A stretch of 64,000 nt of DNA from Clostridia bacterium (GTDB taxonomy: Bacteria > Bacillota > Clostridia > RGIG6154), in the NCBI GenBank assembly GCA_017409875.1, contig JAFQRW010000020.1:22265-86264 (forward strand), written 5' to 3'. The notes beneath the pieces are model-generated. The model saw only the letters and a program-made list of their open reading frames with translations, was not told the DNA's origin and did no database searches. Below, piece by piece: positions 2,701-39,188 of the stretch; positions within the stretch are counted from its first letter, which is position 1, and every line of letters starts with the position of its first letter. A program made the translations under genes and the position numbers.

Positions 2701-2780
2701 GGAGTTCGATTCTCGCCTTTATCATAAACAAAAAAGCCACTTGTGTGGCTTTTTGTTTATGGTGGAGATGAGGAGAATCG
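2701..2780. repeat. 80-bp direct repeat, copy 2 (overlaps the true ssrA 3' end)
   Basis: Identical to 2501-2580. Includes the hairpin AAAAAGCCAC-ttgt-GTGGCTTTTT and the ssrA acceptor/T-loop end. Confidence 0.9.
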
Positions 2781-9290: not shown

Positions 9291-9985
9291 TTGTTTTCTC
9301 CTAATACTGCTTTAATTATATTTTTTGACGCAATATTTTCAAAGTTGTCAGAAAGCGAAGCTAAACTTACGTCTCCGCCATACTTTCTTTCAAGTGCTTT
9401 TTTAATTATAAAATCACAAAGTTCAGGATTTTTGGGAAGTAACGGACCGTGAAGGTTGCTTGCAACAACGTTTTTATACATTGCGCCCTCAAACCCCATA
9501 CCATTGTTTCCAAACCCTTCAAGCACATCTCCCAAAGGCTTTAAATCGCCAATGTCTGTAGTATACTCATGGTTTTCAAATCCCGAAACCAAGACTTTTC
9601 CGCTACCAAAATCACATTCGATAATAACATTTCCCGACGCTCTTTGTTTAGCTTTTTTGTATCTTACGTCAATCAACCCGAGCTTTCCTGCCATCTGGAA
9701 ACCACCACAAACTGCAAGGAGTACGCCGCCGCTATCTACATATTCTTTTAAAGCATCTTTTTGGGCGCTCAATTTTTCCAGAACAATTTCCTGTTCGTGT
9801 TGACCTCCACCGCCTAAAAATAAAATGTCACATTCTTCAAGGTTTAACACACCGTCTGTTTTAATTTCGGTTATCTGTACATCAATACCGCGCCAGATAC
9901 ACCTTTTTTCAAGTGCGCTTATGTTTCCCTTGTCGCCATAAAGATTTAAAAGGTCAGGATAAAGATGAACAATTCTAATTTGCAT
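9287..9985 (-). CDS. gatD: lipid II isoglutaminyl synthase, glutamine amidotransferase subunit GatD
   Basis: LYPDLLNLYGDKGNI and LAVCGGFQMAG (CobQ-type GATase). Overlaps murT. Confidence 0.8.
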   Translation of the reverse strand: MQIRIVHLYPDLLNLYGDKGNISALEKRCIWRGIDVQITEIKTDGVLNLEECDILFLGGGGQHEQEIVLEKLSAQKDALKEYVDSGGVLLAVCGGFQMAGKLGLIDVRYKKAKQRASGNVIIECDFGSGKVLVSGFENHEYTTDIGDLKPLGDVLEGFGNNGMGFEGAMYKNVVASNLHGPLLPKNPELCDFIIKKALERKYGGDVSLASLSDNFENIASKNIIKAVLGENK

Positions 9986-11321
9986 TACTATTTCCTCCCA
10001 ACTCTTTTAAAACTGCCTGCGTAGAAAAAAGAGCAGTATAATTGACCAACACATATATCACATCGCCGCTGCCGGATGCTATAAGCTCTTTAAGTCGCGT
10101 TTTTATATCAGGGCAAAGAAAAATTTCACCCTCACTTAAGCCTGAATATTTAAGTCTTAAACCCATATCGGCGTAACGGCTTCCCGACACCGAATAGCTT
10201 GTAGTATTTTCTTGCATCAAATCCTCAAATTCAACATCCCACAGCCATGAAACATCTTTGCCGTCACCAATTCCGTCATTAATTGCGATAACAATGTCTT
10301 TTTTGTCAGGGTCTTCTTTGACAGTTTCAACCGACTGATTAAACCCCGCAGGGTTTTTAGCCAGAAGCAGATAAACATTTTTACCGCCGATTTTGAATTT
10401 TTCCAACCTGCCTGCCTGAGGCTTGTATTCTCTTGCAGTCTTTTTAAGCATCTCAAAGCCTGAATCAATATTTAAAATACTGCTTGCCACCGCCAAAATG
10501 TTGTAAATGTTGTATTTTCCTCTGCCATTTAATTCAATTATGCCAAACCCTTCGATATTAAACGAAAGTGCAGGGAAGAGCTTAACATCTTTTGCGCATA
10601 CATCTAAAGCAGGTCTTTTAAAACCGCACCAGCAAGAATAATCGCCAAGCTGACTGAAATGATGGAAATTATATTTTAAAGGCTTGCCGCAAAAATGACA
10701 GAATTTTCCCTCGCCCGAATCTTTTGCGTTGTCAAATTCTTTGTTTTTAATTCCGTAAAAAATCTTTTCGTTTGAAAAGTCAGCTGCTAAACTTACCGTC
10801 AGCGGGTCGTCGCCGTTTAGCACCAAAACAGCATTTGGTGCTAAGCTTATTGCCCTCTTTAAAAAATTCATTGTAATATCAATCTCGCCGTAGCGGTCAA
10901 GCTGGTCTCTGAAAAGATTGGTAATTACTATCTTGTCGGGCGTTATCATTTTAAAAATATACTCTGCCCAACCCTCGTCTGTTTCAAGGCAGGCGTAATC
11001 AACATCAATTTTACCGAAAATATTGCATTTTTCTATAAACGCAACAACCGCACCCTCGTCCATATTAGCACCAAGACGGTTGCACGCAACAGAATATCCG
11101 GCATTTGAAAGAGTATCAGCTAAAATATTGTTAGTTGTAGTCTTACCGTTAGTTCCCATCACGGCAATAACTTCTTTTTTTACCTTCTTTTGAAATTCCT
11201 TTAAAATATCGGGATAAAGCTTAAATGCAAGCTTCCCGGGAGCGCTTGTGGCTTTCTTTCCCAAAACCCGAAGCACAAAAATAAAAATTTTACATATAAA
11301 AACAGTTAAAAAATATTTCAT
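9975..11321 (-). CDS. murT: lipid II isoglutaminyl synthase, Mur-ligase subunit MurT
   Basis: VMGTNGKTTTNN P-loop, Cys-rich ribbon CHFCGKPL...CWCGFKRP, DUF1727-like C-terminus. Confidence 0.8.
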   Translation of the reverse strand: MKYFLTVFICKIFIFVLRVLGKKATSAPGKLAFKLYPDILKEFQKKVKKEVIAVMGTNGKTTTNNILADTLSNAGYSVACNRLGANMDEGAVVAFIEKCNIFGKIDVDYACLETDEGWAEYIFKMITPDKIVITNLFRDQLDRYGEIDITMNFLKRAISLAPNAVLVLNGDDPLTVSLAADFSNEKIFYGIKNKEFDNAKDSGEGKFCHFCGKPLKYNFHHFSQLGDYSCWCGFKRPALDVCAKDVKLFPALSFNIEGFGIIELNGRGKYNIYNILAVASSILNIDSGFEMLKKTAREYKPQAGRLEKFKIGGKNVYLLLAKNPAGFNQSVETVKEDPDKKDIVIAINDGIGDGKDVSWLWDVEFEDLMQENTTSYSVSGSRYADMGLRLKYSGLSEGEIFLCPDIKTRLKELIASGSGDVIYVLVNYTALFSTQAVLKELGGNSNAN

Positions 11322-11497
11322 AAAAAAATGTCCTTTAAAAATTTTTGTATAAAACCTTTTTACAGGGTAATAATATAAGTGACCTCACAAAACACATACC
11401 CCCTTTTAAAAGCGGATAAGCCGCTTTTTGTAAAAGGCATCCGCATTTTGCGGGTGCTTTTTATAATATAGGAGACATTGTGTGATTAATGCACTTT

Positions 11498-11728
11498 TTA
11501 CATATCCTCTTCAGCATCTTTTACCGAATCTTTATCCCAGTCGCCTCTTTTGATATGCGCCATCTCGTGAAGATATGTGCGTCTTTGCTGCTCTGCCGAC
11601 AGCTTTTCATTTAAATAAATATTATAGTTGCCGTCGTCATCTATTGCAGTATACCCTTTAATTCTCGGCGGCATTTTTATTAGTCTTGTGAAAATTTCTC
11701 CCATTTTATTCTCCTCAAAAGTTATCAT
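11498..11728 (-). CDS. minimal ImmA/IrrE-like zinc-metallopeptidase-motif protein
   Basis: 76 aa with YLHEMAHIKRGD (HExxH). Overlaps the stop of the upstream XRE gene. Confidence 0.5.
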   Translation of the reverse strand: MITFEENKMGEIFTRLIKMPPRIKGYTAIDDDGNYNIYLNEKLSAEQQRRTYLHEMAHIKRGDWDKDSVKDAEEDM

Positions 11729-12074
11729 TAGTAGCCTTCATTGCATTATGTATTGCAATCATCTGCTTAATTTCGGTGGGTGTTGCATTTTTTGCAATAT
11801 CAAAAAGCACACGGAATTCCGGGCTTGATTTAAGCATTTCTTTCATTTCATCCACATCATCACCCAAGGCATACTTTTCAACACCGTACAGGTAATCAGT
11901 AGAAACACCGAAAAATTTAGCAAGCCTTGTAATGGCATCAGGAGTAGGAACCGAAGCCCCTGCCTCATATTTGCACACAGAAGAAACATGCACACCTAAA
12001 AAATCTGCTAAATCTTTTTGCGTCATATTATTTTGTTTTCTCAAAGTTTTAATATTTTCTGATAAAAGCGCCAT
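11715..12074 (-). CDS. XRE-family HTH transcriptional regulator
   Basis: NIKTLRKQNNMTQKDLADFLGVHVSSVCKYEAG. Start set at ATG 12074. Confidence 0.8.
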   Translation of the reverse strand: MALLSENIKTLRKQNNMTQKDLADFLGVHVSSVCKYEAGASVPTPDAITRLAKFFGVSTDYLYGVEKYALGDDVDEMKEMLKSSPEFRVLFDIAKNATPTEIKQMIAIHNAMKATNDNF

Positions 12075-14683: not shown

Positions 14684-15214
14684 TTGGGTGATAACAATCT
14701 AAATCCTGTAATAACCAAAAGCGAAAACTGGAAATGTTGGTATGTAAAAATTTCACCTGCCACCTGCGAAAGATGTCTTAAACTTAATTTAAGAATTTTT
14801 GCAGTTTACGATTTATTTGCTCCTCCTTTGCACCCTAATTGTAACTGCACTTTAGCACCTCTTGGTGCTATATATAGCGGTACTGCTACAATAAACGGAC
14901 TTTCAGGAGCAGATGCGTGGCTGAAATTATACGGAGAATTGCCAAAGAATTATGTAAATAAAGACTATGCAAAAAAACACGGTTGGAAAAGGATTAAAGG
15001 CAATTTAAGAGATGTTCTCCCAAATGCAACAATAGGAGGAGGCATATATTACAATGATAAACAATTACTTCCTGACGTACTTGGGCGAATATGGTATGAA
15101 GCAGATATAAATTACACAGGAGGCTACAGAAATCATCATCGTCTTCTTTACTCAAATGACGGACTCTTGTTTGTAACCTATAACCATTATAACACTTTTT
15201 ATGAAATTATTTAG
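14684..15214 (+). CDS. barnase-type ribonuclease toxin with N-terminal MuF-like HPNCxC zinc knuckle
   Basis: WKCWY..ATCERC..PPLHPNCNCTL, then alignment over the full barnase length (LPKNY..GW..KGNL..GRIWYEADINYTGGYRNHHRLLYSNDGLLFVTYNHYNTFYEI). TTG start. Confidence 0.85.
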   Translation: MGDNNLNPVITKSENWKCWYVKISPATCERCLKLNLRIFAVYDLFAPPLHPNCNCTLAPLGAIYSGTATINGLSGADAWLKLYGELPKNYVNKDYAKKHGWKRIKGNLRDVLPNATIGGGIYYNDKQLLPDVLGRIWYEADINYTGGYRNHHRLLYSNDGLLFVTYNHYNTFYEII

Positions 15215-15223
15215 GAGGAAAAT

Positions 15224-15508
15224 ATGAATTATTACACGATTGATTTTACAAATACGACTGATTTATCAGACTTTTATCAGCGTATAATCAAAGGTCTTGG
15301 TTTCCCTGATTGGTGTGGAGAAAATGCTGATGCTATTTGGGATTTAATTACATGCCATTTAAAAACCCCTTGCCACATTACTGTGCTCGGCAATAACACC
15401 TTGCCACGAATTCCTGCATACGAGTATCCTATTATTAAAAACACATTTGACGAAACTGTCAAGTGGTATAAAAATATAGGCGAGCAAGTAATTTTTGTCT
15501 ATAAGTAA
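15224..15508 (+). CDS. barstar-like immunity protein
   Basis: LSDFYQRIIKGLGFPDWCGENADAIWDLI parallels barstar [27 protein letters not shown]. Starts 9 nt after the toxin stop. Confidence 0.85.
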   Translation: MNYYTIDFTNTTDLSDFYQRIIKGLGFPDWCGENADAIWDLITCHLKTPCHITVLGNNTLPRIPAYEYPIIKNTFDETVKWYKNIGEQVIFVYK

Positions 15509-15684: not shown

Positions 15685-15747
15685 TTTCCCGACAAAAAGC
15701 TGTAGCATTTTTGTCGAGAGGCGCGCTCTGCCGCCGATTATTTGCTT

Positions 15748-15830
15748 GATTCTTCAACAGCAACAGCGCAAGCTACAGTCATACCAACCATTGGGTTGTT
15801 GCCTGCGCCAATGAGGCCCATCATTTCTAC
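15748..15830. repeat. attL: 83-bp perfect direct repeat (orphan 3' tail of the GGGtGRT gene, reading frame 15738-15830)
   Basis: Identical to 30686-30768. The reverse strand reads VEMMGLIGAGNNPMVGMTVACAVAVEESSK*. Confidence 0.9.
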
Positions 15831-16155
15831 TAAAACTGTAATTTCCTCGCCAAAGCCCTGTTTGCTCCGACATTATCCACATCATCTGCGTGTCATTTGC
15901 CCCACATTATAGCGCAGTTTAGGCTCGTTGTCAATATGTTTTTATACTCCGATCTTCTTTGCTTTTAACGTATTTAAAATATATAACCTGTTTACTTTCA
16001 AAAACATTTCTGTTATAATGTAATTATGATATATGTTTTTGTTTGGAAAATAACAGTATAGTCTCATCTATGCTAACAAAACTAAACCAGAACTAGTTGA
16101 ATATAAAACCCGTGATAAAAATATAAAAATCACAAATGATCAAGGATGATTGATA

Positions 16156-17601
16156 ATGGAAAATCTGGAAAAACTAGTAAACAAATTAAGAGAATATGAC
16201 AACGAAGAGAATTGGTTTGAATTTAAGCATAATAATTATGATCCTGAAATAATCGGTCAGGACATAAGTGCTTTAGCAAACGGAGCTGCTTTTGCCGAAA
16301 AAGCTTGTGCTTATATGATTTGGGGTGTTGATGATAAAACTCATGAAATTGTCGGAACTGATTATGATCAATATTCACTTAAAGTAGGCAATCAGGAAAT
16401 CGAGAACTGGTTGCGTACCTTAATATCCAAAAATGCAGAATTTGAATTCAAAACAATTTATATGAATGATAAACGTGTAGTAGTGCTCATAATATATAAA
16501 GCAACCAATCAAACAGTAACATTTAAAAAGGTTGACTATATTAGAGTTGGGAGCTACACAAAAAAATTGAACGATTTTCCGCAAATGCAGGCACAACTGT
16601 GGGATAAGATCAGAAATAGCCGATTCGAAGAACAATATGCCAAGCAGGATTTATCCGCTTCGGAAGCTATACAACTACTGGATTTTTCTGTTTATTTCGA
16701 TCTCAAGAATGAACCAATTCCTGCTGAATTAGAGGGCATTATCCATTATTTAGTTCAGGAAGATATTTTAGCGAAACAAGATAATGGTATGTATGCTATT
16801 ACGAACATGGGTGCGATCTTATTTGCTAAAAGATTATCTGACTTCCCGAGACTCGAAAGAAAAGCTGTCAGAGTTGTACAATATAAAGACAACAGTAGAC
16901 TTGAATTGTTAAAAGAGGATGTAGGAAATAAAGGTTACGCTGTCGGATTTGACGGACTACTAAAATTCATTGAGGCATTATTACCTTCAGAAGAAGTAAT
17001 TGACGGAGCTATACGTTATAAAAAAACAACATACCCATCAATTGCATTAAGAGAAGCAATTGCAAATGCGCTGATTCATCAGGATTTTTCTGTTACTGGC
17101 ACAGGTGTGGTTGTTGAAATCTTCGGCAATAGAATAGAAATAACAAATCCTGGTACTCCGTTAGTTGATGTATACAGGATCATAGATAATCCACCAAAAT
17201 CGCGTAATGAAAAACTTGCTTCTCTAATGCGAAGATTAAAAATGTGCGAAGAACTTGGAACAGGTTGGGATAAAATTGTCATTTCCTGCGAACTCCAACA
17301 ATTGCCAACTCCACACATAAGAATTTACGAGGAAAATACAAAAGTAACTCTATTTTCTAAAGTAGACTTTTTCGACTTGTCTCCACACGATAAAATTTGG
17401 GCTTGTTATATGCACGCTTGCATTAAATATATACAAGGCGAATTTTTAACCAACAGTTCTTTAAGGGAACGATTTGGGGTGTCTGATGCTTCTTCTGCAA
17501 GTGTTTCTAGATTAATTAAAGACACTTGTGAAAAAGGATATATCAGAAAATTAGAAGACACTGCACCAAAGCACACAAAATATATTCCTGCATGGGCATA
17601 A
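16156..17601 (+). CDS. Schlafen/AlbA_2 domain plus HATPase_c_4-like ATP-binding putative DNA-binding protein
   Basis: N-terminal EENWFEFKHNNYD...ISALANGAAF...YMIWGVDD (AlbA_2) and C-terminal LREAIANALIHQDFS...IEITNPG. Confidence 0.65.
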   Translation: MENLEKLVNKLREYDNEENWFEFKHNNYDPEIIGQDISALANGAAFAEKACAYMIWGVDDKTHEIVGTDYDQYSLKVGNQEIENWLRTLISKNAEFEFKTIYMNDKRVVVLIIYKATNQTVTFKKVDYIRVGSYTKKLNDFPQMQAQLWDKIRNSRFEEQYAKQDLSASEAIQLLDFSVYFDLKNEPIPAELEGIIHYLVQEDILAKQDNGMYAITNMGAILFAKRLSDFPRLERKAVRVVQYKDNSRLELLKEDVGNKGYAVGFDGLLKFIEALLPSEEVIDGAIRYKKTTYPSIALREAIANALIHQDFSVTGTGVVVEIFGNRIEITNPGTPLVDVYRIIDNPPKSRNEKLASLMRRLKMCEELGTGWDKIVISCELQQLPTPHIRIYEENTKVTLFSKVDFFDLSPHDKIWACYMHACIKYIQGEFLTNSSLRERFGVSDASSASVSRLIKDTCEKGYIRKLEDTAPKHTKYIPAWA

Positions 17602-17626
17602 TTTAACTTGCTGGTAACTTGCAGAA
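17600..17626. repeat. 27-bp direct repeat, copy 1 (AATTTAACTTGCTGGTAACTTGCAGAA)
   Basis: Exact copy at 17696-17722. Each copy contains TAACTTGC twice. Confidence 0.85.
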
Positions 17627-17695: not shown

Positions 17696-17722
17696 AATTT
17701 AACTTGCTGGTAACTTGCAGAA
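17696..17722. repeat. 27-bp direct repeat, copy 2
   Basis: Exact copy of 17600-17626, 96 bp downstream. Confidence 0.85.
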
Positions 17723-17786: not shown

Positions 17787-19241
17787 TTAATTCATTGTGC
17801 CGATTTCGTCAAGTTTAACACAACTTGATAAAGGTCGTGCATTCCAAAAACAGCCGTTATACCCCATGCCTCTTTCTGACACGCATTTTTTTATAGAAGA
17901 TTTTAATTCATCTATAGAAGAAACCCCAAATAGCTCAAACATTTTTTCACACTGTTTGCGTGATTTTAATTTCTCCCATTCTTGTATATTTTCTTTTGTA
18001 TAAATATAGCATGTCGGGAACCAATAAGTATCAAAAGGTCGATATTCATCATTAATAGGAACATCCAGTGCATTAAAAATTTGATATAAAAACAAATCTG
18101 CTTGAGCAAGTGCTTCACTGGTATAAATGGGTAACTTTTCTCTTTCATTACACAATATATGTCCCATCAATGTATACTTGTTTTTATATTCGGTTGTTGG
18201 TTTATAGTGTTCTTCGATAATACGACTGTGGTGCCTGAATCTTGAATAATTCGTAGGTAATTTACTTTCATCTAAAGCATTAATTCTCAAAAAATAGGTA
18301 TTGGTTAGTATTTCATTAATTACCTTGTATTCCTTATAATGTCTCAGAAAGGCAATTACACATATAAATAGCTCCCAAATATGACATTTATATATCTCAA
18401 ATTCATATTCACCACATGAGGATACATTTTTCTCGTATGTTTTAGCATATATCAGTGTGTTAAACATATTTTCAAATATTTCAGAAATTACGCTTCCGAC
18501 ATCACACTCCGCACACAATAGAACTTCCAAAAAATCAAGAAAACAATCTCTCACACTTTTCATTCCAATGAATGTATCAAAAACAACTTTAGGATCAGTT
18601 GCATTTTTGTTATAATATTGTTTTAATATCTCGATATACTCTGACATAAACTTATGAATCAAAGCTTCTTGTTTTTTTGTTGAATTAGTGCCTTTTATCT
18701 GTTTTATCAAATCTTGAATAGGAAAAATATTTGCTTTGTCCTCTTCTAACCATTCTGGCTTTGTGCCGAGTTTTGGCTTTTTAACCAAAGGCTTTTCATA
18801 TATGTTCCTCAACAATTTTTCATATTCAGCTTCGTAATTACTATCATCTGACAAATCAATATAAATTCTTGTCTTTATATACGTTGGCACATAAGGGGTA
18901 CCATCTTCATCACACTCAGCGATTATGGGAATAAACTTTTCTTGGTTTACTTTACCATATATCTCCGTTGATATTATAGCCGTTTCATCACCAACTCCGC
19001 CTTCACGTCTGTTTGCTTTTTCTGCATACTTCTTATCACAAATAATTAAAACCTTATCAATATCAGGGTTGTTGACGCACTGCTCCATAAAAACATATTT
19101 ATCTTGTCCCTCTTTTAAGTCCCATTTATCTAAAACAACATCTACACCGTGAGAAACTAATCTTTGTGCTAATGGAACTACTAATGCATCGCTACTCCAT
19201 GAATATGACATAAAAATCTTCGGTATTTTATCTTCTTTCAT
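17787..19241 (-). CDS. TIR-domain protein with ~340-aa uncharacterised C-terminal domain
   Basis: KIFMSYSWSSD..VDVVLDKWDL..VLIICDKKY..GGVGDETAII..FIPII pattern of bacterial TIR/SEFIR-like domains. The rest has no recognisable motif. Confidence 0.7.
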   Translation of the reverse strand: MKEDKIPKIFMSYSWSSDALVVPLAQRLVSHGVDVVLDKWDLKEGQDKYVFMEQCVNNPDIDKVLIICDKKYAEKANRREGGVGDETAIISTEIYGKVNQEKFIPIIAECDEDGTPYVPTYIKTRIYIDLSDDSNYEAEYEKLLRNIYEKPLVKKPKLGTKPEWLEEDKANIFPIQDLIKQIKGTNSTKKQEALIHKFMSEYIEILKQYYNKNATDPKVVFDTFIGMKSVRDCFLDFLEVLLCAECDVGSVISEIFENMFNTLIYAKTYEKNVSSCGEYEFEIYKCHIWELFICVIAFLRHYKEYKVINEILTNTYFLRINALDESKLPTNYSRFRHHSRIIEEHYKPTTEYKNKYTLMGHILCNEREKLPIYTSEALAQADLFLYQIFNALDVPINDEYRPFDTYWFPTCYIYTKENIQEWEKLKSRKQCEKMFELFGVSSIDELKSSIKKCVSERGMGYNGCFWNARPLSSCVKLDEIGTMN

Positions 19242-22277: not shown

Positions 22278-22403
22278 TCATATTTCACTGGAGTATACCC
22301 AAATGAAACAAAAAACAGGGAGCCTATTTTGTATCAATAGACTCCCTTTTACTTTTTGAAACATGTGTCAAATTAAATTAGGCTTTTTGAAACACTTGTG
22401 GCA

Positions 22404-22595
22404 TTATTTAAACTTTACATTAAACTCATCCTGCCATGTGCCTTTACCATAGTTAATTCTGATTTGACTTTCAAGTTTTTCAGCAGCATCCCAGCTAATT
22501 TCGTTATTAAATTTTGCCTTTTCAACCGCTTCAATTGACTTTTCCATTTCATTTTGTCTTTGCCAAGCCGCAAATCCTAACAAAAATGCATCCAT
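22404..22595 (-). CDS. hypothetical protein (63 aa), last gene of the helicase operon
   Basis: ORF 38 bp downstream of the previous gene. No motif recognised. Confidence 0.45.
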   Translation of the reverse strand: MDAFLLGFAAWQRQNEMEKSIEAVEKAKFNNEISWDAAEKLESQIRINYGKGTWQDEFNVKFK

Positions 22596-22633
22596 TTTGC
22601 TGTGCTCCTTAACTCTTTTTTAAGTATCCATGA

Positions 22634-23179
22634 TTAATCTGGTCTTCCTTGTGTAGTTCCTGCCAGGCTAAGTGCATTTAACAACCTATTGTATTCATCA
22701 TTTGATGTCACTTTCTTTTCATATATTGTGCCATCACTTAATCTGCTGATAGCCGCTGTAGCAAAATATCTACAATCAGGACATGTAAAAACTCTTTTCA
22801 TATATGCATTTCCTGCTGTTCCTGACATGTTCACCTTTATAGGATATTCTCTTCCAACAGGAAATACTGTTTTGTACATAGGTTTTCCGCAAAACGGACA
22901 TGCGTATGAACTGTCATAAAATACACGTGTAAGCATTGGATTTGGTCTGTTTTCATATGTTGAACCAACATGCCTATTTGTTTTCTGCCACATATTTTTT
23001 CCCTCCTTTATTCTTCTTTCTTCTTCAGCTTTTCTTCGCCTTTCTTCCGTTGCTCTTATTCTTTCTAATTCCGCTTTTCTTTCCTCTTCTTCAGCTTGTT
23101 TTTTAGCTCTATCATCAATTAACATAAATATAGGCATCACCATTAATATAATACAAGATATAATAGTTATCAACTCCAT
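22634..23179 (-). CDS. membrane-anchored coiled-coil / zinc-ribbon protein
   Basis: N-terminal TM helix, a charged EEERKAELERIRATEERRRKAEEERR segment, then CPFCGKPM...CPDCRYF. Confidence 0.55.
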   Translation of the reverse strand: MELITIISCIILMVMPIFMLIDDRAKKQAEEEERKAELERIRATEERRRKAEEERRIKEGKNMWQKTNRHVGSTYENRPNPMLTRVFYDSSYACPFCGKPMYKTVFPVGREYPIKVNMSGTAGNAYMKRVFTCPDCRYFATAAISRLSDGTIYEKKVTSNDEYNRLLNALSLAGTTQGRPD

Positions 23180-23204
23180 ATTAAAACCCTACTTTCTTAT
23201 TTCA

Positions 23205-23675
23205 TTACTCAATAGAAGCGAGAGCTTCTTTGGGTGATAATGTCCCTTCATCTACTGCTCTAATCACAGATTTGTACTTTTTTATGTTTTCACCCAAGGT
23301 ACGAAACATCATACCGAGCACACTCCAAGAAGTATCAGATAAAAGCATTTTTTGTCTAACATCTCCAACCATTCTGCAACATACAAGCTTTTGTTCATAA
23401 AACAATAAAAATTCAGGACTTGCCAGTCTATTATTTATCATCATTATTATTTCACTTACTTTTATTTCACTTCGTTTCTGCAAACTAAAAATAGGTACAA
23501 AGAGAGTAAAATCACTTTTTCCTACCTGTATACCCACTCTCATAGTTTCATCCGTATTTTCACTAATCTTGACATTGGGCACCATTATGATTCCCTTCTT
23601 TTCTATTGTTTCAAACTTATACCCCATTTTTTCAACTGACATTAATGCATAATTATAAATTTCTTTTGAATACAT
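23205..23675 (-). CDS. hypothetical protein, YbjN/T3SS-chaperone-like (tentative)
   Basis: 156 aa. Its layout is similar to the upstream 193-aa paralogue (..NNRLASPEFLLFYEQKLVCCRM..). Family assignment is from recall only. Confidence 0.4.
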   Translation of the reverse strand: MYSKEIYNYALMSVEKMGYKFETIEKKGIIMVPNVKISENTDETMRVGIQVGKSDFTLFVPIFSLQKRSEIKVSEIIMMINNRLASPEFLLFYEQKLVCCRMVGDVRQKMLLSDTSWSVLGMMFRTLGENIKKYKSVIRAVDEGTLSPKEALASIE

Positions 23676-23693
23676 AATAATCTCCTTGTTTTC

Positions 23694-24275
23694 CTAAAAA
23701 TTTCCGTTCAAGTCAACTTCTCCCATCTCAATAAGTTTACTCGTTATACTTAATTGTGCCTGATATGACGGTTCTGCTCCATTTTGCACGGACATAATAG
23801 CATGTCCAAATGACTCTAATTGATCATTAACTTTAAATATGGCTTCTTTAATCTCTTTTTCCGAAATCTCATCGCTAAATGTATAACTATGATGACGGCA
23901 AAATATCATTTTATGCTGATAATCCAAGAACAAACTTGGTGTAAATTGTTCATTTAACCTTAACAAAAGTTCACACATGTTAGCAATTCGATTATCTTGT
24001 ACAACAAAGTTATCGTATACACCCTTTATAATATAGCTCTCTTCATATGCCTTAATCATAATTCGTACATTCTTAATTTCTGAGTTAATTTGATTAAAAA
24101 ATGTTATTACACCATTATTTTCTTGATACGGAATGTTTAAATCTTTTAATACGTTCTTTACACTTTGATAGAAATTATTTTGTGGTTGCGGTTTTAATTC
24201 TTCTTTACGAGAAGAACTTGATCCTTTTAATAGATTTATAATTCTTTGACAAAAACTTTGCTCTTTCATTTTCAT
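23694..24275 (-). CDS. hypothetical protein, YbjN/T3SS-chaperone-like (tentative)
   Basis: 193 aa with ..LLRLNEQFTPSLFLDYQHKMIFCRHH... Confidence 0.4.
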   Translation of the reverse strand: MKMKEQSFCQRIINLLKGSSSSRKEELKPQPQNNFYQSVKNVLKDLNIPYQENNGVITFFNQINSEIKNVRIMIKAYEESYIIKGVYDNFVVQDNRIANMCELLLRLNEQFTPSLFLDYQHKMIFCRHHSYTFSDEISEKEIKEAIFKVNDQLESFGHAIMSVQNGAEPSYQAQLSITSKLIEMGEVDLNGNF

Positions 24276-24314
24276 ATCTCCTTCTTTAAATTCATGTTGT
24301 TATACACACTCCAA

Positions 24315-25067
24315 TCAATCATCTCGCGATTCTGCCCAGCTCTCATAATCCTCATAAGACGGGAATTCAGATGCATAACTGACAAAATTAGATTCAGCAG
24401 CTTTAGCATAATGCTCCATCTCCAATTTTTCCCAATCTTCTAAATCATTATCACTTTCATCAGGTTGTAAAATATTGCTTTCTTGCCCCAAATATGATAT
24501 TTTAGTAGTTGATGGTATAGCGCAAGCTCCAATCTCTGTACCATAAGGTACAGTAATCGATTTCAAAGATGAACACCCCTGAAAAGCAGAATGACCAATG
24601 TATGAAATGTTGTTTGGAACAACTACATTTGTTAAAGATGTACAATCTGTAAAAGTATACAATTCAATACCATTAATGTACTTTGGGAGAACAACTGATT
24701 TTAATGATGTACAATTCTGAAAAGCTGCGTTACCAACATATGTAACACTATCTGGAATGTTGATAGTCATCAATGCTCTGCAAGCTAAAAAAGCGTAATC
24801 CTCAATTCTTTCAACACCACTTGAAATGATAACACTTTTTAATTTCGCACAACCATAAAAAGCACCCTCGCCAATAGTTATAACATTGCCTGGAATTGTA
24901 ACTGTTGTCAAATTAGAAGACATTTTAAAAGCATCTTCTCCAATTTCAGTAATAAAATCAGGTAACGTCACACTTTGCTCATTACCTTTATATGATTTTA
25001 GCACAGTACCTTCAATCACAAACCCTTCTGAATTTCTTTGATTGTTTGCATAATTCTGCATTTTCAT
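24315..25067 (-). CDS. BspA-type leucine-rich-repeat protein, no signal peptide, acidic C-terminal tail
   Basis: Repeats of the type IPxxVTxIGxxAFxxCxxLKSV occur five or more times. The tail is DESDNDLEDWEKLEMEH...EDYESWAESRDD. Confidence 0.75.
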   Translation of the reverse strand: MKMQNYANNQRNSEGFVIEGTVLKSYKGNEQSVTLPDFITEIGEDAFKMSSNLTTVTIPGNVITIGEGAFYGCAKLKSVIISSGVERIEDYAFLACRALMTINIPDSVTYVGNAAFQNCTSLKSVVLPKYINGIELYTFTDCTSLTNVVVPNNISYIGHSAFQGCSSLKSITVPYGTEIGACAIPSTTKISYLGQESNILQPDESDNDLEDWEKLEMEHYAKAAESNFVSYASEFPSYEDYESWAESRDD

Positions 25068-25082
25068 CTCTCCAATTTATTT

Positions 25083-25403
25083 TTATATTTCCTTTATCAA
25101 CAGATTTATCCCATAATGAGAATCATATCCACTTCCGCCTGTTACCGCAGTTACCTCCGCGGTATAGTGTGTACCTCTGTACATCTTAGGCGACATAATA
25201 GCTGCTTTTTCTTTTGGGATAAACCCCAAAGTTGCACCGCTTGGATGCACTACTGCTACTGCATTTGAATCAAAAGGGTTATCAGGTCTTCTTTCTAATA
25301 TTAACTGCTGTCCTACATCAAGCTCGCCATCTTCATATAATTCTTCAACAAGTTCCTCTCTGCCTTCAAATGTTATACCTGCTACCTTTGTGTAGAATTC
25401 CAC
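25083..25403 (-). CDS. stand-alone HIRAN-domain protein
   Basis: KVAGITFEGREE...RRPDNPFDSNAVAVV...LGFIPKEKA matches the HIRAN signature. Confidence 0.7.
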   Translation of the reverse strand: MEFYTKVAGITFEGREELVEELYEDGELDVGQQLILERRPDNPFDSNAVAVVHPSGATLGFIPKEKAAIMSPKMYRGTHYTAEVTAVTGGSGYDSHYGINLLIKEI

Positions 25404-25416
25404 CTCTTATCCCTCC

Positions 25417-27312
25417 TCACATTTTTGAAAGTCCTTTTGATATTTCGGATATAAAACTCCTTTTGATTACTGAATTAGTTGGTGCTACATACAACGGATT
25501 ATCATAACTTGTAATGAATAGAAAATCTATTGCTCTTGTCATAGTAACGTAAAAAAGTCTTCGCTCCTGCTCCAAATCTGCTTTGTTATGTACAAAGAAA
25601 TCATTTGGGAATACGCCTACCTGAACACCTGGAATAAACACAACAGGGAACTCCAGTCCTTTAGCTTTATGGCAAGTCATAATATTGACTTTTCCATTGC
25701 TTAAGCTTGGTTCATCTTCGTTTTGCAATGTCAGTTGAAGAAAATCTATAAACTCCTGAATGTTTGCAGTAGCCTGAAAATCTTCTTCATACTTTTCAGC
25801 AATAGCAAGAATCTGTTCTACTTGTTCAATATGTTTATTTCGTTCTGTACTTTTTTTTGCATCTTCAAAAGTATAGTAATCAAGTAATTTTTTGATTATT
25901 TCAACTGACGATAAATCACTTTTTTCTTCGGATAATGATTTAAGCAATTCATATCTTGCTTTAAACAAATTTCTGTTCTTAAAATCAATATCAGATAAAT
26001 ACAACTTTCTGAAGACATCCGAATTGTTGCTACCTTTCCATCCATTTTCATCTACAAGTTTTTTATAGGCTATATTTCCAATAATTCTGTTCGGAAAATT
26101 GATGGCGGAATAAATGTTTTTAGAACTCCTAAAATTGTTTACAGTAAGTATAACTTTTATAAACTCAATAAAACCATTATCTCCCTGTGTGTACTCAATA
26201 TATGGGATTTTATTTTTTTCAAATATTTCTGTAATAGCTGCGACCTGCTTATTTGTCCTTACCAAAATAGCAATATCTCCAAAATCGTATGCATTCTCTT
26301 TGTTGAGTTTGATAATAGCATTTGTTATTGCCCTGGCTTCTTCCGCATCAGAAGGATAATTACCATATTTAATTTTGTCTTTCATTAATGCTTTGTCGCT
26401 GTTTTTCTTCTTAGATGTAACAGCTTTTATGATACGTTGAAAGTTATTTTTAATAAGCACATCCGAAAGCTCAACAATTTCCTTTTCCGATCTGAAATTA
26501 TCTTCAAGCCTTATAACTTCCACATCTTCACCTTTGACAAACTCACGCAGGAGGGAAGGGGATGATCCTCTCCACTCATATATGCATTGATCGTCATCAC
26601 CAACAACAAAGATTTCCGCTTCGTTGCCACAAATCAAATCAATAAACTCTTTTTGTAAAAAATTTATATCCTGATATTCATCAACTAATATGTATTTAAA
26701 TTTATCATGATACTGTTGTTGAATTAGCGGTCTTTCTTTTAAAAGCGGTACAGATCTCCATATAAAATCATCAAGATCAAACATACCTTTTCGTTCAAGT
26801 TCCTGGTTATATTTTTCAAAAACTTCACTAGTTTCCCGATCTGACACATCTAATCCATTTTTTATATAGCTAATCTTTTGTGCAAGCTCTACGATCCTGT
26901 TTTTCGGTATATTTTCATCATTCAAAATTTCACGAATTATATTGTTTTTTGTGCTTGGATCAGCAATTTCAAACTCAGATTCATAGTTGATTAATTCACA
27001 GTAGTTTCTAAGTAATTCTAAGCCAAGCTTGTGAAAGGTTTTAATTCCTACGAAATTGCATTCTGCACCAAGCCTGTCAAGTACTCTTTTTCTCATTTCG
27101 TTTGCTGCTTTATTTGTGAATGTTAATGCAAGTATCTGACTTGGATTAACTCCTTTTTCGGAAATGAGATAACATATTCTTTCTGTTAAAACTCTTGTTT
27201 TTCCTGAACCTGGTCCTGCAACTACTGCTGTTTTTTTGCTCTCGGTTACTACTGCTTTACATTGCTTTTCGGTAAGTAATCTCAAAGCATTATCCATTGA
27301 ACTGTTTTGCAT
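25417..27312 (-). CDS. UvrD/PcrA-type SF1 DNA helicase
   Basis: AGPGSGKT, LTFTNKAANEM, VDEYQD, GLEFPVVF and VTMTRA motifs. Start set at ATG 27312, because the track start (TTG 27375) lies inside the promoter -35. Confidence 0.85.
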   Translation of the reverse strand: MQNSSMDNALRLLTEKQCKAVVTESKKTAVVAGPGSGKTRVLTERICYLISEKGVNPSQILALTFTNKAANEMRKRVLDRLGAECNFVGIKTFHKLGLELLRNYCELINYESEFEIADPSTKNNIIREILNDENIPKNRIVELAQKISYIKNGLDVSDRETSEVFEKYNQELERKGMFDLDDFIWRSVPLLKERPLIQQQYHDKFKYILVDEYQDINFLQKEFIDLICGNEAEIFVVGDDDQCIYEWRGSSPSLLREFVKGEDVEVIRLEDNFRSEKEIVELSDVLIKNNFQRIIKAVTSKKKNSDKALMKDKIKYGNYPSDAEEARAITNAIIKLNKENAYDFGDIAILVRTNKQVAAITEIFEKNKIPYIEYTQGDNGFIEFIKVILTVNNFRSSKNIYSAINFPNRIIGNIAYKKLVDENGWKGSNNSDVFRKLYLSDIDFKNRNLFKARYELLKSLSEEKSDLSSVEIIKKLLDYYTFEDAKKSTERNKHIEQVEQILAIAEKYEEDFQATANIQEFIDFLQLTLQNEDEPSLSNGKVNIMTCHKAKGLEFPVVFIPGVQVGVFPNDFFVHNKADLEQERRLFYVTMTRAIDFLFITSYDNPLYVAPTNSVIKRSFISEISKGLSKM

Positions 27313-27346
27313 TTTAATACACCACTGATCTTTCTCTATGTACAAA

Positions 27347-27375
27347 ATAATAGCATATATTCCACTATTTGTCAA
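27347..27375 (-). promoter_or_regulatory. promoter of the helicase operon
   Basis: The reverse strand reads TTGACA-17 nt-TATTAT, about 35 nt upstream of the ATG at 27312. Confidence 0.6.
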
Positions 27376-27438
27376 CTAATTTCCACATAAAGTAATTGAT
27401 TTTGGTGTAAAATGTTTACATATAGTGGAGGCGATTGT

Positions 27439-27744
27439 ATGATTAAAGAATTTTCCGAAAACCTTAAAAATCTTCGCAACAAAAAAGGACTTACCCAAAC
27501 ACAGCTTGCAGAAAAGCTATGGCTGAATAAATCCATTATTTCAGCATACGAAAATCAACAACGTATGCCTTCGCTTGATGTTCTGATAAAATTGTCTTAT
27601 GAGTTTAACGTATCAATGGAATATCTGCTTGGAATAGGGAAGGGAAATACTATTGATATTACAGGTCTTAATGACGAACAGGTATCTTTGGTGGCTCAAC
27701 TAATTGCAGAATTTAAAAGAAGCAATACAACCAATAATTTTTAA
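27439..27744 (+). CDS. XRE-family HTH regulator, divergent from the helicase operon
   Basis: LKNLRNKKGLTQTQLAEKLWLNKSIISAYENQQRMPS, with a GGAGG RBS before ATG 27439. Confidence 0.8.
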   Translation: MIKEFSENLKNLRNKKGLTQTQLAEKLWLNKSIISAYENQQRMPSLDVLIKLSYEFNVSMEYLLGIGKGNTIDITGLNDEQVSLVAQLIAEFKRSNTTNNF

Positions 27745-28265: not shown

Positions 28266-29336
28266 TTACGCAACTTTAGTCATTATGAACTTGCCACTAA
28301 AGTCTAAAATATCTTCCGCAGTAATTGTATTCTTTAAAATTTCTTTGAAATTTGGAAGATCACTGACATTTTTGTATATTACATCTCCATCTTCATAGAC
28401 ACAGTATTCATCAAGCAAATCGAAACATTCTTGCTTTTGTTGAACACTCATATATGTTTCTGATTTTTCACCAAGAACATGTCTATTTTGTTTTGTTGGC
28501 AAGTCATGAATTTTTTGCTTTATACTCTCCCTAATTGTTTCAATATATAAAGTCATAATTTCTCTTTCGTAATTAACATTTTGCAACTTAACATAAGCGC
28601 TTGTTGCTAACATTTTTTTCGAAACAATTTTAATTTCTTTACCTCTTTCTTGACTAAAATATTCATCTCTTTTTGCATTGAATTCAGTAATCTTATGATT
28701 ATTTTTTCTTCTATACTTTGAGTATAACTCATATTCTTCAATGTTCATCTCTGATAAGGCTTTTTCCTTTGCACTATCTAACTCTTCGGCATCATACTCA
28801 TTATTACAATCATCTACATAGTATTCTTTATATTTTATTATGCGATCATTCTTCAATTTTTTTATCGCTGATCTAATCTTGGAGAATACAATCCTGTCAA
28901 TTGCACCTTCAACATATTCGAGACAGAATTCATTTCCTTCATATGTTTCTTCTAATGTTTCCCAATCCTGCATAAATTTTAAATGTTCGAATATTTTCTT
29001 GGTAAGCTTATACCTCGAATCAAAATCACATATATGATACAAAACCAATTCCTCAAAATTAGTTACGTAGTATTTCTTTCTTACATCTTTATCGGTAACA
29101 ATAATGTAATGATCTTTCATTATGTATTTTGTATCCTGTTTGATAATAGAAGTCTTTGAATTAATCCTGCTAGCAAAATACCAATTATCCCATTTCCTCA
29201 GGAAATAACATTTTTTAATTGCTGCTTTTTTACCATTCAAGTCCAGCGAATCCGACCCCAACTCATTTTTATAATTTAATTCTTTATAAAGTGCTGTTAT
29301 TGACCGAGCTTTCGTTGTACCTGTTTTCATAGGCAT
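28266..29336 (-). CDS. hypothetical protein (356 aa) downstream of the integrase
   Basis: Long ORF with a GGAGGA RBS. Lys/Glu/Tyr-rich, no motif recognised. Confidence 0.6.
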   Translation of the reverse strand: MPMKTGTTKARSITALYKELNYKNELGSDSLDLNGKKAAIKKCYFLRKWDNWYFASRINSKTSIIKQDTKYIMKDHYIIVTDKDVRKKYYVTNFEELVLYHICDFDSRYKLTKKIFEHLKFMQDWETLEETYEGNEFCLEYVEGAIDRIVFSKIRSAIKKLKNDRIIKYKEYYVDDCNNEYDAEELDSAKEKALSEMNIEEYELYSKYRRKNNHKITEFNAKRDEYFSQERGKEIKIVSKKMLATSAYVKLQNVNYEREIMTLYIETIRESIKQKIHDLPTKQNRHVLGEKSETYMSVQQKQECFDLLDEYCVYEDGDVIYKNVSDLPNFKEILKNTITAEDILDFSGKFIMTKVA

Positions 29337-29628: not shown

Positions 29629-30573
29629 CTATTTTGTTGAAAAATTTATTTGCTTTCTGCCCTGAAACTTATTTAAAAGGTTTATTTCTTCCACCTGTTT
29701 TGACAAATCACTGACCAATAAATTGATATAATTCTGTGTGATGCTTAAACTACTGTGTCCCAAAAGCCTGGAAAGATGAACAACATTACCTCCACTTAAT
29801 ACCCATTGCTTGGCAAACGTATGCCTGTATCTGTGAATTCCTGTTGTTTCCACACCTCGTTTCTTATTATATGTATAAAGCATATGATAGCAAGTGCTTT
29901 TTACAAGTTGTTGACCATATACATTACAAAAAAGATAATCCGCTAAGGTTTTATGCTGCCTGTATTTTAAATATTCTTTTAATATGCCTGCAAGTGTCTG
30001 ATTCATTGGCACAATAAGTGGTTTTCTGTTTTTAGTAACATTTACATACACAACATTATTGTCAAAATCCACATCTTTAATTTGTATATTTATAAGACTT
30101 CTCTGTCTCACTCCTGTGCAAAAAAGGAAATTTGTCATTACCCAACTCTGATATTCAATAAACTTACATTTTCTTATATCAGGCTTTTTCAAAAGTAATG
30201 TAAGTTCCGCTTCGGTGTAGGTTTCTACATTAGTTTTATCAACCTTTATTGCCTGCATCTTGAATGGCTGAATATAACCTTCATCCATCAGAAAATGAAG
30301 TGTAGTTATAAGATCTCTTAAGTAGGAATTTATGCTGACATCGTTATTCATCCTTTCTTTCAAATAGAGAACATAGTTATTATAAGCAGACTGTGTAATT
30401 TCAGTAACAGGCATTTCGTGATCAAAGTACTTGTAAAATTGAGTATAGCTCTGTTTGTAGTGATTGATAGTTCCTTCTCTTAAATTTCTCTGCCTGCAGT
30501 AGTCAAGATATTTGTTGCAGCCCTCCTCAAAAGTAATAGTGTGCTTGTTTAACATTTGCAGTTTTTTCATCAT
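29629..30573 (-). CDS. int: tyrosine-type site-specific integrase
   Basis: CTGVRQRSL (Arg I), HRYRHTFAKQW and LLGHSSLSITQNY (HxxR..Y). Start at ATG 30573 with a GGAGG RBS. Confidence 0.88.
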   Translation of the reverse strand: MMKKLQMLNKHTITFEEGCNKYLDYCRQRNLREGTINHYKQSYTQFYKYFDHEMPVTEITQSAYNNYVLYLKERMNNDVSINSYLRDLITTLHFLMDEGYIQPFKMQAIKVDKTNVETYTEAELTLLLKKPDIRKCKFIEYQSWVMTNFLFCTGVRQRSLINIQIKDVDFDNNVVYVNVTKNRKPLIVPMNQTLAGILKEYLKYRQHKTLADYLFCNVYGQQLVKSTCYHMLYTYNKKRGVETTGIHRYRHTFAKQWVLSGGNVVHLSRLLGHSSLSITQNYINLLVSDLSKQVEEINLLNKFQGRKQINFSTK

Positions 30574-30675
30574 AAAACCTCCATAAAAAATCAGACACAT
30601 CACAAGGGAAATCCCAAAATGATGTGTCTAACTTTTAATTTTCAGTTTTTAAAAATGATGCCTTTAAAAAAGCTC

Positions 30676-31674
30676 TTATTTATTAGATTCTTCAACAGCA
30701 ACAGCGCAAGCTACAGTCATACCAACCATTGGGTTGTTGCCTGCGCCAATGAGGCCCATCATTTCTACGTGAGCAGGAACTGAAGAAGATCCTGCAAACT
30801 GAGCGTCGCCGTGCATTCTGCCCATTGTGTCAGTTAAGCCATAAGAAGCAGGGCCTGCAGCCATGTTGTCAGGATGAAGTGTTCTTCCTGTACCGCCGCC
30901 TGATGCAACTGAGAAATATTTTTTACCATTTTCCCAAGACCATTTTTTGTATGAACCTGCAACAGGGTGCTGGAATCTTGTAGGATTGGTTGAGTTACCT
31001 GTAATAGAAACGTCAACGTCCTCCTTAATCATAATTGCAACGCCTTCTAAAACGTCGTTAGCACCATAGCATTTAACTTTTGATCTTTCGCCGTCAGAGA
31101 AAGCAACTTCTCTTACAACTTTAAGCTCGCTTGTGTAGAAATCATAATCTGTTTCAACATAAGTAAAGCCATTAATTCTTGAAATAATATAAGCTGCGTC
31201 TTTACCAAGACCGTTTAAGATAACGCGAAGAGGCTCTTTTCTAACTTTGTTAGCGCTTCTTGCGATACCGATAGCACCTTCTGCAGCAGCAAAAGACTCA
31301 TGACCCGCTAAAAAGCAGAAGCATTTTGTTTCTTCTCTTAAAAGCATTGCAGCAAGGTTGCCGTGGCCTAAACCTACTTTTCTTGTTTCAGCAACAGAAC
31401 CCGGAATACAAAATGCCTGTAAACCTTCGCCGATTGCTTCAGCAGCGTCTGCAGCATTAGTTACGCCTTTTTTAAGTGCGATTGCGCAGCCAAGAGTGTA
31501 TGCCCAAACTGCATTTTCAAATGCGATAGGCTGAACACCTTTAACAATTTTATCAACTTCAATACCTTTAGATTCGCAAAGCTCTTTTGCTTCCTCTAAG
31601 GTAGCCATACCATATTCTTTAAGACAAACGTCAATTTTCGCCTGACGTCTTTCTTTACCTTCAAACTGTGCCAT
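30676..31674 (-). CDS. GGGtGRT-family protein
   Basis: Contains the name-giving SGGGTGRTLHPDN motif. 332 aa. Confidence 0.8.
   Translation of the reverse strand: MAQFEGKERRQAKIDVCLKEYGMATLEEAKELCESKGIEVDKIVKGVQPIAFENAVWAYTLGCAIALKKGVTNAADAAEAIGEGLQAFCIPGSVAETRKVGLGHGNLAAMLLREETKCFCFLAGHESFAAAEGAIGIARSANKVRKEPLRVILNGLGKDAAYIISRINGFTYVETDYDFYTSELKVVREVAFSDGERSKVKCYGANDVLEGVAIMIKEDVDVSITGNSTNPTRFQHPVAGSYKKWSWENGKKYFSVASGGGTGRTLHPDNMAAGPASYGLTDTMGRMHGDAQFAGSSSVPAHVEMMGLIGAGNNPMVGMTVACAVAVEESNK
30686..30768. repeat. attR: 83-bp perfect direct repeat inside the 3' end of the intact GGGtGRT gene
   Basis: Identical to 15748-15830. Confidence 0.9.
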
Positions 31675-38897: not shown

Positions 38898-38984
38898 TGG
38901 TGCAGGTGGTGGGAATCGAACCCACACGGTATCACTACCACAGGATTTTGAGTCCAGCGCGTCTGCCAGTTCCACCACACCTGC
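38898..38984 (-). tRNA. tRNA-Leu (anticodon CAA), long variable arm, CCA encoded
   Basis: The reverse strand reads GCAGGTGTGGTGGAACTGGCAGAC...CTCAAAA...GGGTTCGATTCCCACCACCTGCACCA, 87 nt. Confidence 0.85.
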
Positions 38985-39111: not shown

Positions 39112-39188
39112 CGAGGCGTAGCTCAGTTTGGTAGAGTGCTTGGTTTGGGACCAAGATGCCGCAGGTTCAAGTCCTGTCGCCTCGACCA
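39112..39188 (+). tRNA. tRNA-Pro (anticodon TGG), CCA encoded
   Basis: Acceptor CGAGGCG/CGCCTCG, anticodon arm CTTGG-TTTGGGA-CCAAG, T arm GCAGG-TTCAAGT-CCTGT, 77 nt. A terminator hairpin follows. Confidence 0.9.

Follow-up and report, generated by a model that had tools for sequence, protein, structure and literature searches.

A PcrA-like helicase paired with a stand-alone HIRAN protein on an integrative element: a candidate conflict module of gut-type Clostridia

The stretch of DNA analyzed here, referred to as the window, comprises 64,000 nucleotides (nt) of Clostridia bacterium contig JAFQRW010000020.1 (assembly GCA_017409875.1, positions 22,265 to 86,264); all coordinates are positions of this window and its genes are numbered on the forward strand. 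Within it lies an integrated element that carries seven minus-strand genes, encoding a PcrA/UvrD-type helicase of superfamily 1A (SF1A), a HIRAN protein, a leucine-rich repeat (LRR) protein, two YbjN-superfamily proteins (Ybj1 and Ybj2), a protein with a transmembrane (TM) segment and a zinc ribbon (TM/Zn) and a protein of 63 amino acids (aa) named p63, with an XRE regulator gene divergent from them (Table 1). The central feature of this locus is the pairing of helicase and HIRAN, which recurs at every related locus recovered. All seven open reading frames (ORFs) were confirmed where a preliminary description, made from the DNA letters without database searches, had placed them, as were the short gaps it had noted (13, 15, 39, 18, 25, and 38 bp).

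Table 1. Coordinates of the operon, its control signals, the ends of the carrier element and a domain shared among related loci (locus labels precede coordinates outside the window).
Feature	Position	Strand	Evidence or remark
att repeat, left end of element	15738..15830	.	93-nt direct repeat, 97% identical to 30676-30768
Predicted intrinsic terminator	22317..22347	-	12-bp stem, 5 GC pairs, T-run; 3' of p63
p63, 63 aa, final operon gene	22404..22595	-	ORF with AAGGAG ribosome-binding site
Exchangeable accessory cassette Ybj1-Ybj2-TM/Zn	22596..24311	-	Swapped out in sister element L001
TM + charged helix + 2xCxxC zinc-ribbon protein, 181 aa	22634..23179	-	TM prediction, AlphaFold2 (AF2)
YbjN-superfamily protein 2 (Ybj2), 156 aa	23205..23675	-	Alignment to Ybj1, jackhmmer cross-matches, profile search
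YbjN-superfamily protein 1 (Ybj1), 193 aa	23694..24275	-	Sub-threshold YbjN match; family-level profile search
Cytoplasmic BspA-type LRR_5 protein, 250 aa, acidic tail	24315..25067	-	LRR_5 8.2e-57
Stand-alone HIRAN protein, 106 aa	25083..25403	-	Pfam HIRAN 4.1e-12
SF1A PcrA/UvrD-type helicase, 631 aa	25417..27312	-	Pfam UvrD-helicase 6.9e-70, UvrD_C 1.5e-45
Promoter-like site TTGACA-17-TGcTATTAT	27347..27375	-	11/12 match, TG extension
XRE/HTH_3 regulator	27412..27744	+	HTH_3 1.8e-16; divergent from operon; 101-aa form in gene callers
Tyrosine integrase	29629-30603		Beside right att repeat
att repeat, right end of element	30676..30768	.	3' end of GGGtGRT gene; adjoins tyrosine integrase
~100-aa domain, occurrences	L179:5999-6547, L012:3461-4153		
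~100-aa domain at N-termini	L011:9632-11899, L177:10001-12268, L012:8160-9422, L012:14240-15316, L179:14495-15589, L177:2373-4148

Clear Shine-Dalgarno motifs precede five of the seven genes, among them GAGGAGG before the GTG start of the HIRAN gene and AAGGAG before Ybj1, Ybj2, and p63. The near-consensus promoter that had been proposed in front of the helicase gene, next to a divergent XRE gene, proved to be the top-scoring promoter-like site between 21.5 and 28.4 kb. Because such sites are overall no more numerous than expected from shuffling, the call relies on the quality and position of this one. As it overlaps an alternative TTG start, the ATG at 27312 is the likelier start of the helicase. 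With the best promoter-like site preceding the helicase gene and a terminator closing the last gene, the seven genes are predicted to be a single transcription unit on the mobile element, with the XRE gene divergent from it.

The helicase had been described as a complete UvrD/PcrA-type enzyme and the motifs quoted for it are present in the translation. Both UvrD domains were identified, with intact Walker A and B and motif III–VI residues, which places it in the UvrD/Rep/PcrA SF1A superfamily; the closest solved structure is that of PcrA (1pjr, residues 7–620). Identity with the housekeeping PcrA was ruled out by its score against the PcrA equivalog model TIGR01073 (403 bits with a cut-off of 911, model positions 4–635 of 725 covered) and by the absence of the PcrA C-terminal domain. 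A search of 5.8 billion proteins gave 26 clusters of relatives (P0122–P0147) at 37–54% identity and 409–683 bits, with a sharp gap to housekeeping PcrA, which reached at most 322 bits. The C-terminal domain (PF21196) is found in none of the clade members and in the great majority of housekeeping PcrA matches. The ATPase/helicase motif residues, among them K38, D211/E212, Q242, and R584, show no variation across 27 members of the clade. On these grounds the helicase is a member of a distinct PcrA-like clade, separate from housekeeping PcrA.

Fourteen other loci of this clade were recovered (given L numbers here), nine of them from metagenomes and five from genomes, among which are those of Oscillibacter sp. 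MSJ-31 and O. ruminantium GH1. They represent approximately 12 distinct architectures, as L177 resembles L011 and L239 resembles L179. A set of 155 housekeeping PcrA loci (2.18 Mb) served as controls; a metagenome scan with the helicase alignment yielded housekeeping PcrA only, and these were reused as controls. A search of 2.9 million viral contigs gave no member of the clade. In the metagenome-assembled genome of L012 the clade helicase is divided between two ORFs (9605–10729 and 10805–11884), which a frameshift, pseudogenization or misassembly could explain.

The protein encoded directly downstream of the helicase is a stand-alone HIRAN domain, as had been stated, with a Pfam PF08797 score of 46.2 bits against a gathering cut-off of 24.7. 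Its motif NPFDSNA aligned with NPYDKNA of HLTF HIRAN structures, and residues N42, D45, and N47 are invariant across 11 HIRANs of the clade. The 3'-end pocket motif NP(F/Y)DxNA is thus conserved between the operon HIRAN and HLTF.

A HIRAN gene lies within the helicase gene cluster at all 14 of the other clade loci, upstream or downstream and with no more than one gene between, the HIRAN domain being stand-alone at some of them and embedded in a longer protein at others, while none of the 155 control loci has one. Looking from the other side, an SF1 helicase was present within 6 kb in only 2 of 80 viral HIRAN loci, both being weak matches, and a YbjN-like gene was found beside viral HIRAN at none of the 80. 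The identities of helicase and HIRAN to those of the window also co-vary (r = 0.85, n = 9). Given the 14 of 14 loci set against the control counts, the viral absence and this co-variation, the pairing of helicase and HIRAN is specific in both directions and inherited as a unit.

The regulator follows the same pattern. XRE orthologs, 50–65% identical, are divergently placed beside the HIRAN-helicase pair in L240, L176, L015, and L013, whose elements have integrases only ~23% identical to the window integrase. The XRE regulator belongs to the module, traveling with the pair across unrelated integrases. The conserved unit consists of XRE, helicase, and HIRAN, joined at some loci by LRR_5 and YbjN-like partners. 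The preliminary description had put forward a system of seven genes; the operon is real, but the fixed set of seven is not conserved and its core is limited to these three.

The N-terminus of the LRR protein is not hydrophobic, and the final 60 residues of the protein contain 18 D/E and 3 K/R, in agreement with the earlier account of an LRR protein with an acidic tail and no signal peptide. Its LRR_5 match occurs in two stretches. LRR_5 genes were identified at 7 of the 14 clade loci and at 1 of the 155 control loci, and the co-occurrence of helicase, HIRAN, and LRR across genomes, which the preliminary description had suggested looking for, was accordingly seen. A search for homologs of the LRR protein was of no use in tracing the module, as a single close relative was found amid upward of 1,100 BspA-type proteins of a generic kind.

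The two YbjN-like proteins had been called distantly related, and they are indeed true distant paralogs of ~16% identity. Ybj1 matched Pfam YbjN with an E value of 0.0046 and 17.6 bits, which is under the 22-bit cut-off, and Pfam gave no match for the 156-aa, 181-aa, and 63-aa proteins. While a word-indexed search with the YbjN-like profile found 3 proteins, an exhaustive one placed both paralogs in a family of 643, and among its top 50 members 32 contain Pfam YbjN (best E value 4e-11). An AF2 model of Ybj1, built from a three-sequence alignment, was unusable (mean predicted local distance difference test, pLDDT, of 46), and a genome scan with the 193-aa protein found no relatives. Genes of the family occur at 4 of the 14 clade loci and at none of the 155 control loci. 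The family is also found fused to a DnaA-like AAA+ ATPase (P0319), and a zinc-ribbon fusion occurs in 4 of its top 50 members, which echoes the window's order of a YbjN gene followed by a zinc-ribbon gene.

Several accessory families were identified in fusion with HIRAN. Among the ten long YbjN-family members tested, six carry an N-terminal HIRAN (P0244, P0262, P0278, P0298, P0372, and P0376), and these public fusions provide independent evidence for a HIRAN-YbjN link. Within the clade loci there is a 756-aa HIRAN-LRR_5 protein (L012), a HIRAN-YbjN-like fusion (L095), a fusion of HIRAN with a ~190-aa domain termed X190 (L011 and L177; X190 being stand-alone in L091 and L095), a fusion with a 122-aa domain (L092; stand-alone in L091), and a protein with HIRAN, three DUF6273 and Sel1 repeats (L179). 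Such gene fusions indicate that the accessory genes are physically coupled to HIRAN. X190 was considered as a relative of the YbjN-like family and rejected, there being no profile-profile relation. Compared with a TY-Chap1-like trio, it reached a probability of only 11.5%. Profile searches of the PDB gave a marginal match to diffocin TRI-1 (E = 0.007), which was disregarded.

Accessory content varies from locus to locus, with MORN, Sel1/TPR, and DUF6273 among the families at related loci, and the sister element L001 provides an example of exchange. Its flanks are 95–97% identical to those of the window and it is 95% identical through helicase, HIRAN, and LRR, while the 1.7-kb segment from Ybj1 to TM/Zn is replaced by ~540 bp encoding a 141-aa protein from a family that L092 has in fusion with HIRAN. 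Homology picks up again at the start of p63, the first 29 nt of which are kept.

The 181-aa TM/Zn protein has the architecture ascribed to it, with a TM segment at residues 1–19, a helix at 2–69 in the AF2 model (charged up to residue 69) and then a beta-rich CxxC...CxxC domain (mean pLDDT 66). It had also been suggested as the effector of the system, a role that is not supported. No true homolog was present in the related clade loci, a Foldseek search with its model gave no significant structural match, and L001 carries a different gene in place of it and both YbjN-like genes. With no homologs at the related loci it is not a conserved effector; its model and fold search were uninformative. 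A resemblance to L179 proteins does not extend beyond the charged coil and was set aside as an effect of composition. For p63 there were no significant homologs in Pfam, in the other library searches or at the related loci. TM/Zn and p63 thus appear to be lineage-specific add-ons. Small terminal ORFs of L015 (9780–10025) and L240 (7785–7955) are homologous to each other (E about 1e-40); p63 shares an N-terminal LGF...Q.E motif with them, which was not significant (HMM E = 4.6), and a relationship was rejected.

A further N-terminal domain of ~100 aa, unmatched in Pfam, is common to the long-form helicases of the clade, several LRR_5 proteins, a BrxL ATPase, and two stand-alone proteins of BREX/TerY-P islands (Table 1). 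It resembles a homotypic adaptor, one that would connect parts of different defense systems.

The surroundings of the related loci include a number of defense genes. A TerY-P-type set (165-aa protein, kinase, vWA, and PP2C) is interleaved with five of them, two of which are also by BrxL or PglZ. A specificity subunit of type I restriction-modification (R-M) adjoins L012, and a PDC-S01 candidate (1e-176) adjoins L092. In L240, a radical-SAM gene (5227–6270) directly downstream of the helicase matches models of prokaryotic viperin (pVip) over their N-terminal half (2.4e-18); the gene after this viperin-like gene encodes an unassigned 413-aa protein. The module also occurs without an integrase, between BREX and TerY-P genes or beside ribosomal genes. 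A small serine recombinase bounds it in five loci, the window included; such recombinases have been reported as markers of antiphage loci in Bacillota, in a 2026 study in which Schlafen proteins were validated as defenses (PMC13552941).

The carrier element of the window is delimited by the two 93-nt repeats, which are 14,938 nt apart and copy the 3' end of the GGGtGRT gene, giving an element of 14.9 kb. Its genes are, in order, Schlafen/AlbA2, TIR/SEFIR, ArdC-N + MPTase, an FtsK/TcpA-like ATPase, a small serine recombinase, the operon, XRE, a 356-aa orphan, and the tyrosine integrase. The Schlafen/AlbA2 protein (16150–17601, plus strand) also has HATPase_c_4, and the 484-aa TIR/SEFIR protein is encoded at 17787–19241 on the minus strand; both genes are likely defense cargo. 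A perfect 27-nt direct repeat (17600–17626 and 17696–17722) separates the two. The TIR gene had been described as a neighbor of the operon; it is on the same element, although not adjacent, being ~3 kb off and past the resolvase, FtsK-like, and ArdC genes. A barnase/barstar pair (14684–15508) is located just beyond the left att repeat, outside the element.

Searches of Pfam, NCBIfam, PHROG, PADLOC, and PDB identified no relaxase or Rep family on the 14.9-kb element, where the 356-aa orphan is the only large protein left unassigned. This orphan ORF (28266–29336, minus strand) lies between the XRE and integrase genes, where the GC content of the island is at its lowest (27.9%). It had no match in these libraries and no homolog at the related loci, and may be a novel Rep, a novel relaxase or a further defense gene.

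About a dozen metagenome contigs carry this element at this site, and L002–L004 and L009 were 100% identical to the window on direct comparison. Look-ups of the exact proteins led back to this element and site only, and these copies do not count as independent evidence. A blastn search of the operon against plasmids and phages gave no match, nor did an Rfam scan of the window between 13 and 32 kb. Elsewhere in the window there are ordinary chromosomal RNA genes, namely tRNA-Arg(ACG) at 2385–2461, tmRNA at 2760–3107 (tag ANKNLAYAA), tRNA-Leu(CAA) at 38898–38984, and tRNA-Pro(UGG) at 39112–39188, none of which is the integration site of the element. The host of the element is an uncultured gut-type Firmicute.

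We infer a defensive function for the module from genomic context. The reading favored here is that of a repressor-controlled conflict module, carried as cargo of mobile elements and most likely acting in anti-phage or anti-plasmid defense, and its probability can be put at roughly one half. The setting in a defense island that had been proposed applies to several of the related loci (BREX, TerY-P, type I R-M, PDC-S01), while at 7 of the 14 no recognized defense neighbor was seen in the tests run. The latter is one of a number of observations that weigh against a defensive role. Counts of PADLOC families among neighboring genes gave no separation (139 at the clade loci versus 124 at the control loci), the control count being high because a second UvrD paralog inflates it. 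No conserved effector, such as a nuclease, a TIR protein or a pore-former, was found in the core, and the matches of the helicase to GajB models are those expected of any UvrD-like helicase. With its integrase, divergent XRE, and helicase-led operon in this order, the locus also has the look of the regulatory and replication end of an integrative and conjugative element of the ICEBs1 kind. Finally, older papers place prokaryotic HIRAN in phage or selfish-element replication (PMC6222260, PMC3417536).

The last two points would suit a helper of replication or transfer. After excision and nicking of the element, HIRAN would bind the 3'-OH of the nick and load the element's own helicase for rolling-circle replication or mobilization, the downstream genes being cargo. 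PcrA is the host helicase of rolling-circle plasmids and of ICEBs1, and the module does come right after an integrase and divergent XRE in the window, L015, and L240; a coupling ATPase of the FtsK/TcpA type and ArdC are on the same element, and L180 adjoins PolA and DUF2800 genes. We nevertheless consider this explanation unlikely, given an element on which no relaxase or Rep is detectable, carrier integrases that are unrelated to one another, loci where the module has no integrase at all, and a clade that is missing from the viral contigs searched. The supposed cargo genes are, moreover, fused to HIRAN or share the adaptor domain with the helicase, and so are not independent cargo. Decidedly unlikely is a role in anti-defense or establishment, where helicase and HIRAN would protect or process the 3' end of incoming single-stranded DNA (ssDNA), or strip off host proteins, RecA for example, and the LRR, YbjN, MORN, and Sel1 proteins would neutralize host immunity. 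ArdC near the window module and the DUF2958 and amidoligase-like genes of leading-region type in L092 and L176 would fit such a role, polyvalent proteins of the ArdC type are known to combine many such domains (PMC5512222), and hypervariable protein-binding genes with cassette swapping suit repertoires of inhibitors as well as they suit repertoires of sensors. However, five loci are chromosomal islands amid BREX and TerY-P genes, with an N-terminal domain shared with BrxL, which points to the side of host immunity; the operon is repressor-controlled and is transcribed away from ArdC, FtsK, and the resolvase as a separate operon, and no match to known anti-defense families was seen.

It may also be asked whether there is a single system here at all, since a helicase-HIRAN accessory of DNA repair could simply lie upstream of unrelated co-transcribed cargo (LRR, YbjN-like, TM/Zn, p63). 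The accessory content differs at every locus, TM/Zn and p63 lack homologs at the related loci, and LRR_5 proteins are extremely common in Clostridia. This explanation is very improbable in light of the five different accessory families fused to HIRAN, the enrichment of LRR_5 and YbjN-like genes over the controls, and the tight packing of the operon between one promoter and one terminator.

Within the favored reading of a defensive conflict module, a more specific proposal can be put forward tentatively, with somewhat less than an even chance of being correct. The module would represent an unnamed family of immune modules in which HIRAN reads foreign 3' ends and recruits the PcrA-like helicase for a nuclease-free dismantling, with swapped LRR, YbjN, MORN, and Sel1 cassettes giving specificity. 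The mechanism proposed for the favored reading itself starts from what was observed, namely a conserved pairing, HIRAN fusions, a swapped cassette, and the surroundings of the loci, and adds to this a suggested substrate, helicase action and set of accessory roles. In it, the XRE regulator would keep the operon off or low, as divergent overlapping promoters suggest. HIRAN may then capture the 3' ends of foreign replication intermediates, be they rolling-circle or recombination-primed ones, linear genome ends or transferred ssDNA, and, by analogy with the HLTF motor, position the 3'→5' helicase at the captured end. The helicase could strip the primer or nascent strand with its bound recombinases, or it could burn NTPs in the manner of GajB, and in both cases replication would be aborted with no dedicated nuclease involved. 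By binding proteins of the invader or of the host, the LRR and YbjN-like partners would set specificity or gate activity.

Bacterial HIRAN gains here an obligate, co-diverging partner in a dedicated PcrA-like helicase and a network of fusions that names its likely interactors, and its function becomes a testable problem of two proteins. A defensive role would make the module a helicase-centered system without a nuclease that diversifies by cassette exchange, and one from gut Clostridia, which are poorly covered by defense screens based on E. coli or Bacillus. Should it prove to be an immune module reading 3' ends, this would be the first function for prokaryotic HIRAN, which has been called uncharacterized (PMC11090510), and a bacterial in-trans antecedent or counterpart of the HIRAN-motor pairing of HLTF/Rad5. 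A replication helper or an anti-defense device would likewise be new for small integrative elements.

The module matches no named system, as had been surmised, with GajA, HamA, and HipA all absent, and the full-text literature search found no description of a UvrD-HIRAN(-LRR/YbjN) module. In PADLOC, the helicase matched only GajB (2.9e-87, full length) and reverse transcriptase-associated helicase models, and for HIRAN the sole match was with PDC-M03B models, in their C-terminal part (6.9e-09). The GajB match is unspecific, as a housekeeping UvrD paralog at the control loci also matches GajB models. Gabija is similar in that GajB and the window helicase are both SF1A enzymes of the UvrD/PcrA family, and the Gabija helicase senses DNA termini (PMC10681800). 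It differs in that the partner in the window is HIRAN and not GajA, and the window helicase is closer to PcrA. Pfam and PADLOC identified no GajA, OLD or TOPRIM among the operon and flanking proteins or at the related loci, no other nuclease is encoded in the operon or at those loci either, and Gabija is ruled out by the absence of GajA. Hachiman is excluded by the lack of any HamA (DUF1837) or HamB match in PADLOC and Pfam and by the helicase being SF1A, where HamB is SF2. PDC-M03 consists of a HipA-like kinase (PDC-M03A) and a HIRAN-domain protein (PMC13245101); with no kinase in the operon, the HIRAN domain alone is in common, and this system is also ruled out.

Likenesses exist to three other arrangements. 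The long-form loci L011, L012, L177, L179, and L239 are interleaved with the vWA-PP2C-kinase triads and BrxL/PglZ of TerY-P and BREX systems and share the ~100-aa N-terminal domain, while the window has a short-form helicase without this domain, and there are no TerY-P or BREX genes on its element. ICEBs1, with PcrA and HelP, similarly combines a PcrA-type helicase near an integrase with a switch based on an XRE repressor; in the present case neither a relaxase nor a Rep or HelP protein was detected, the helicase scores under the PcrA equivalog cut-off and is missing the C-terminal domain, and the module also occurs away from such elements. In HLTF/Rad5, HIRAN is fused to a SWI2/SNF2 motor, with a RING domain and activity in fork reversal, whereas the window has an SF1A motor, a separate HIRAN and no RING, on a mobile element or in a defense island. 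Common to the two would be a HIRAN reader of 3' ends, with the shared NP(Y/F)DxNA pocket motif, coupled to an ATP-driven DNA motor, which in HLTF is placed at the 3' end by HIRAN (Chavez 2018, as cited in PMC11090510).

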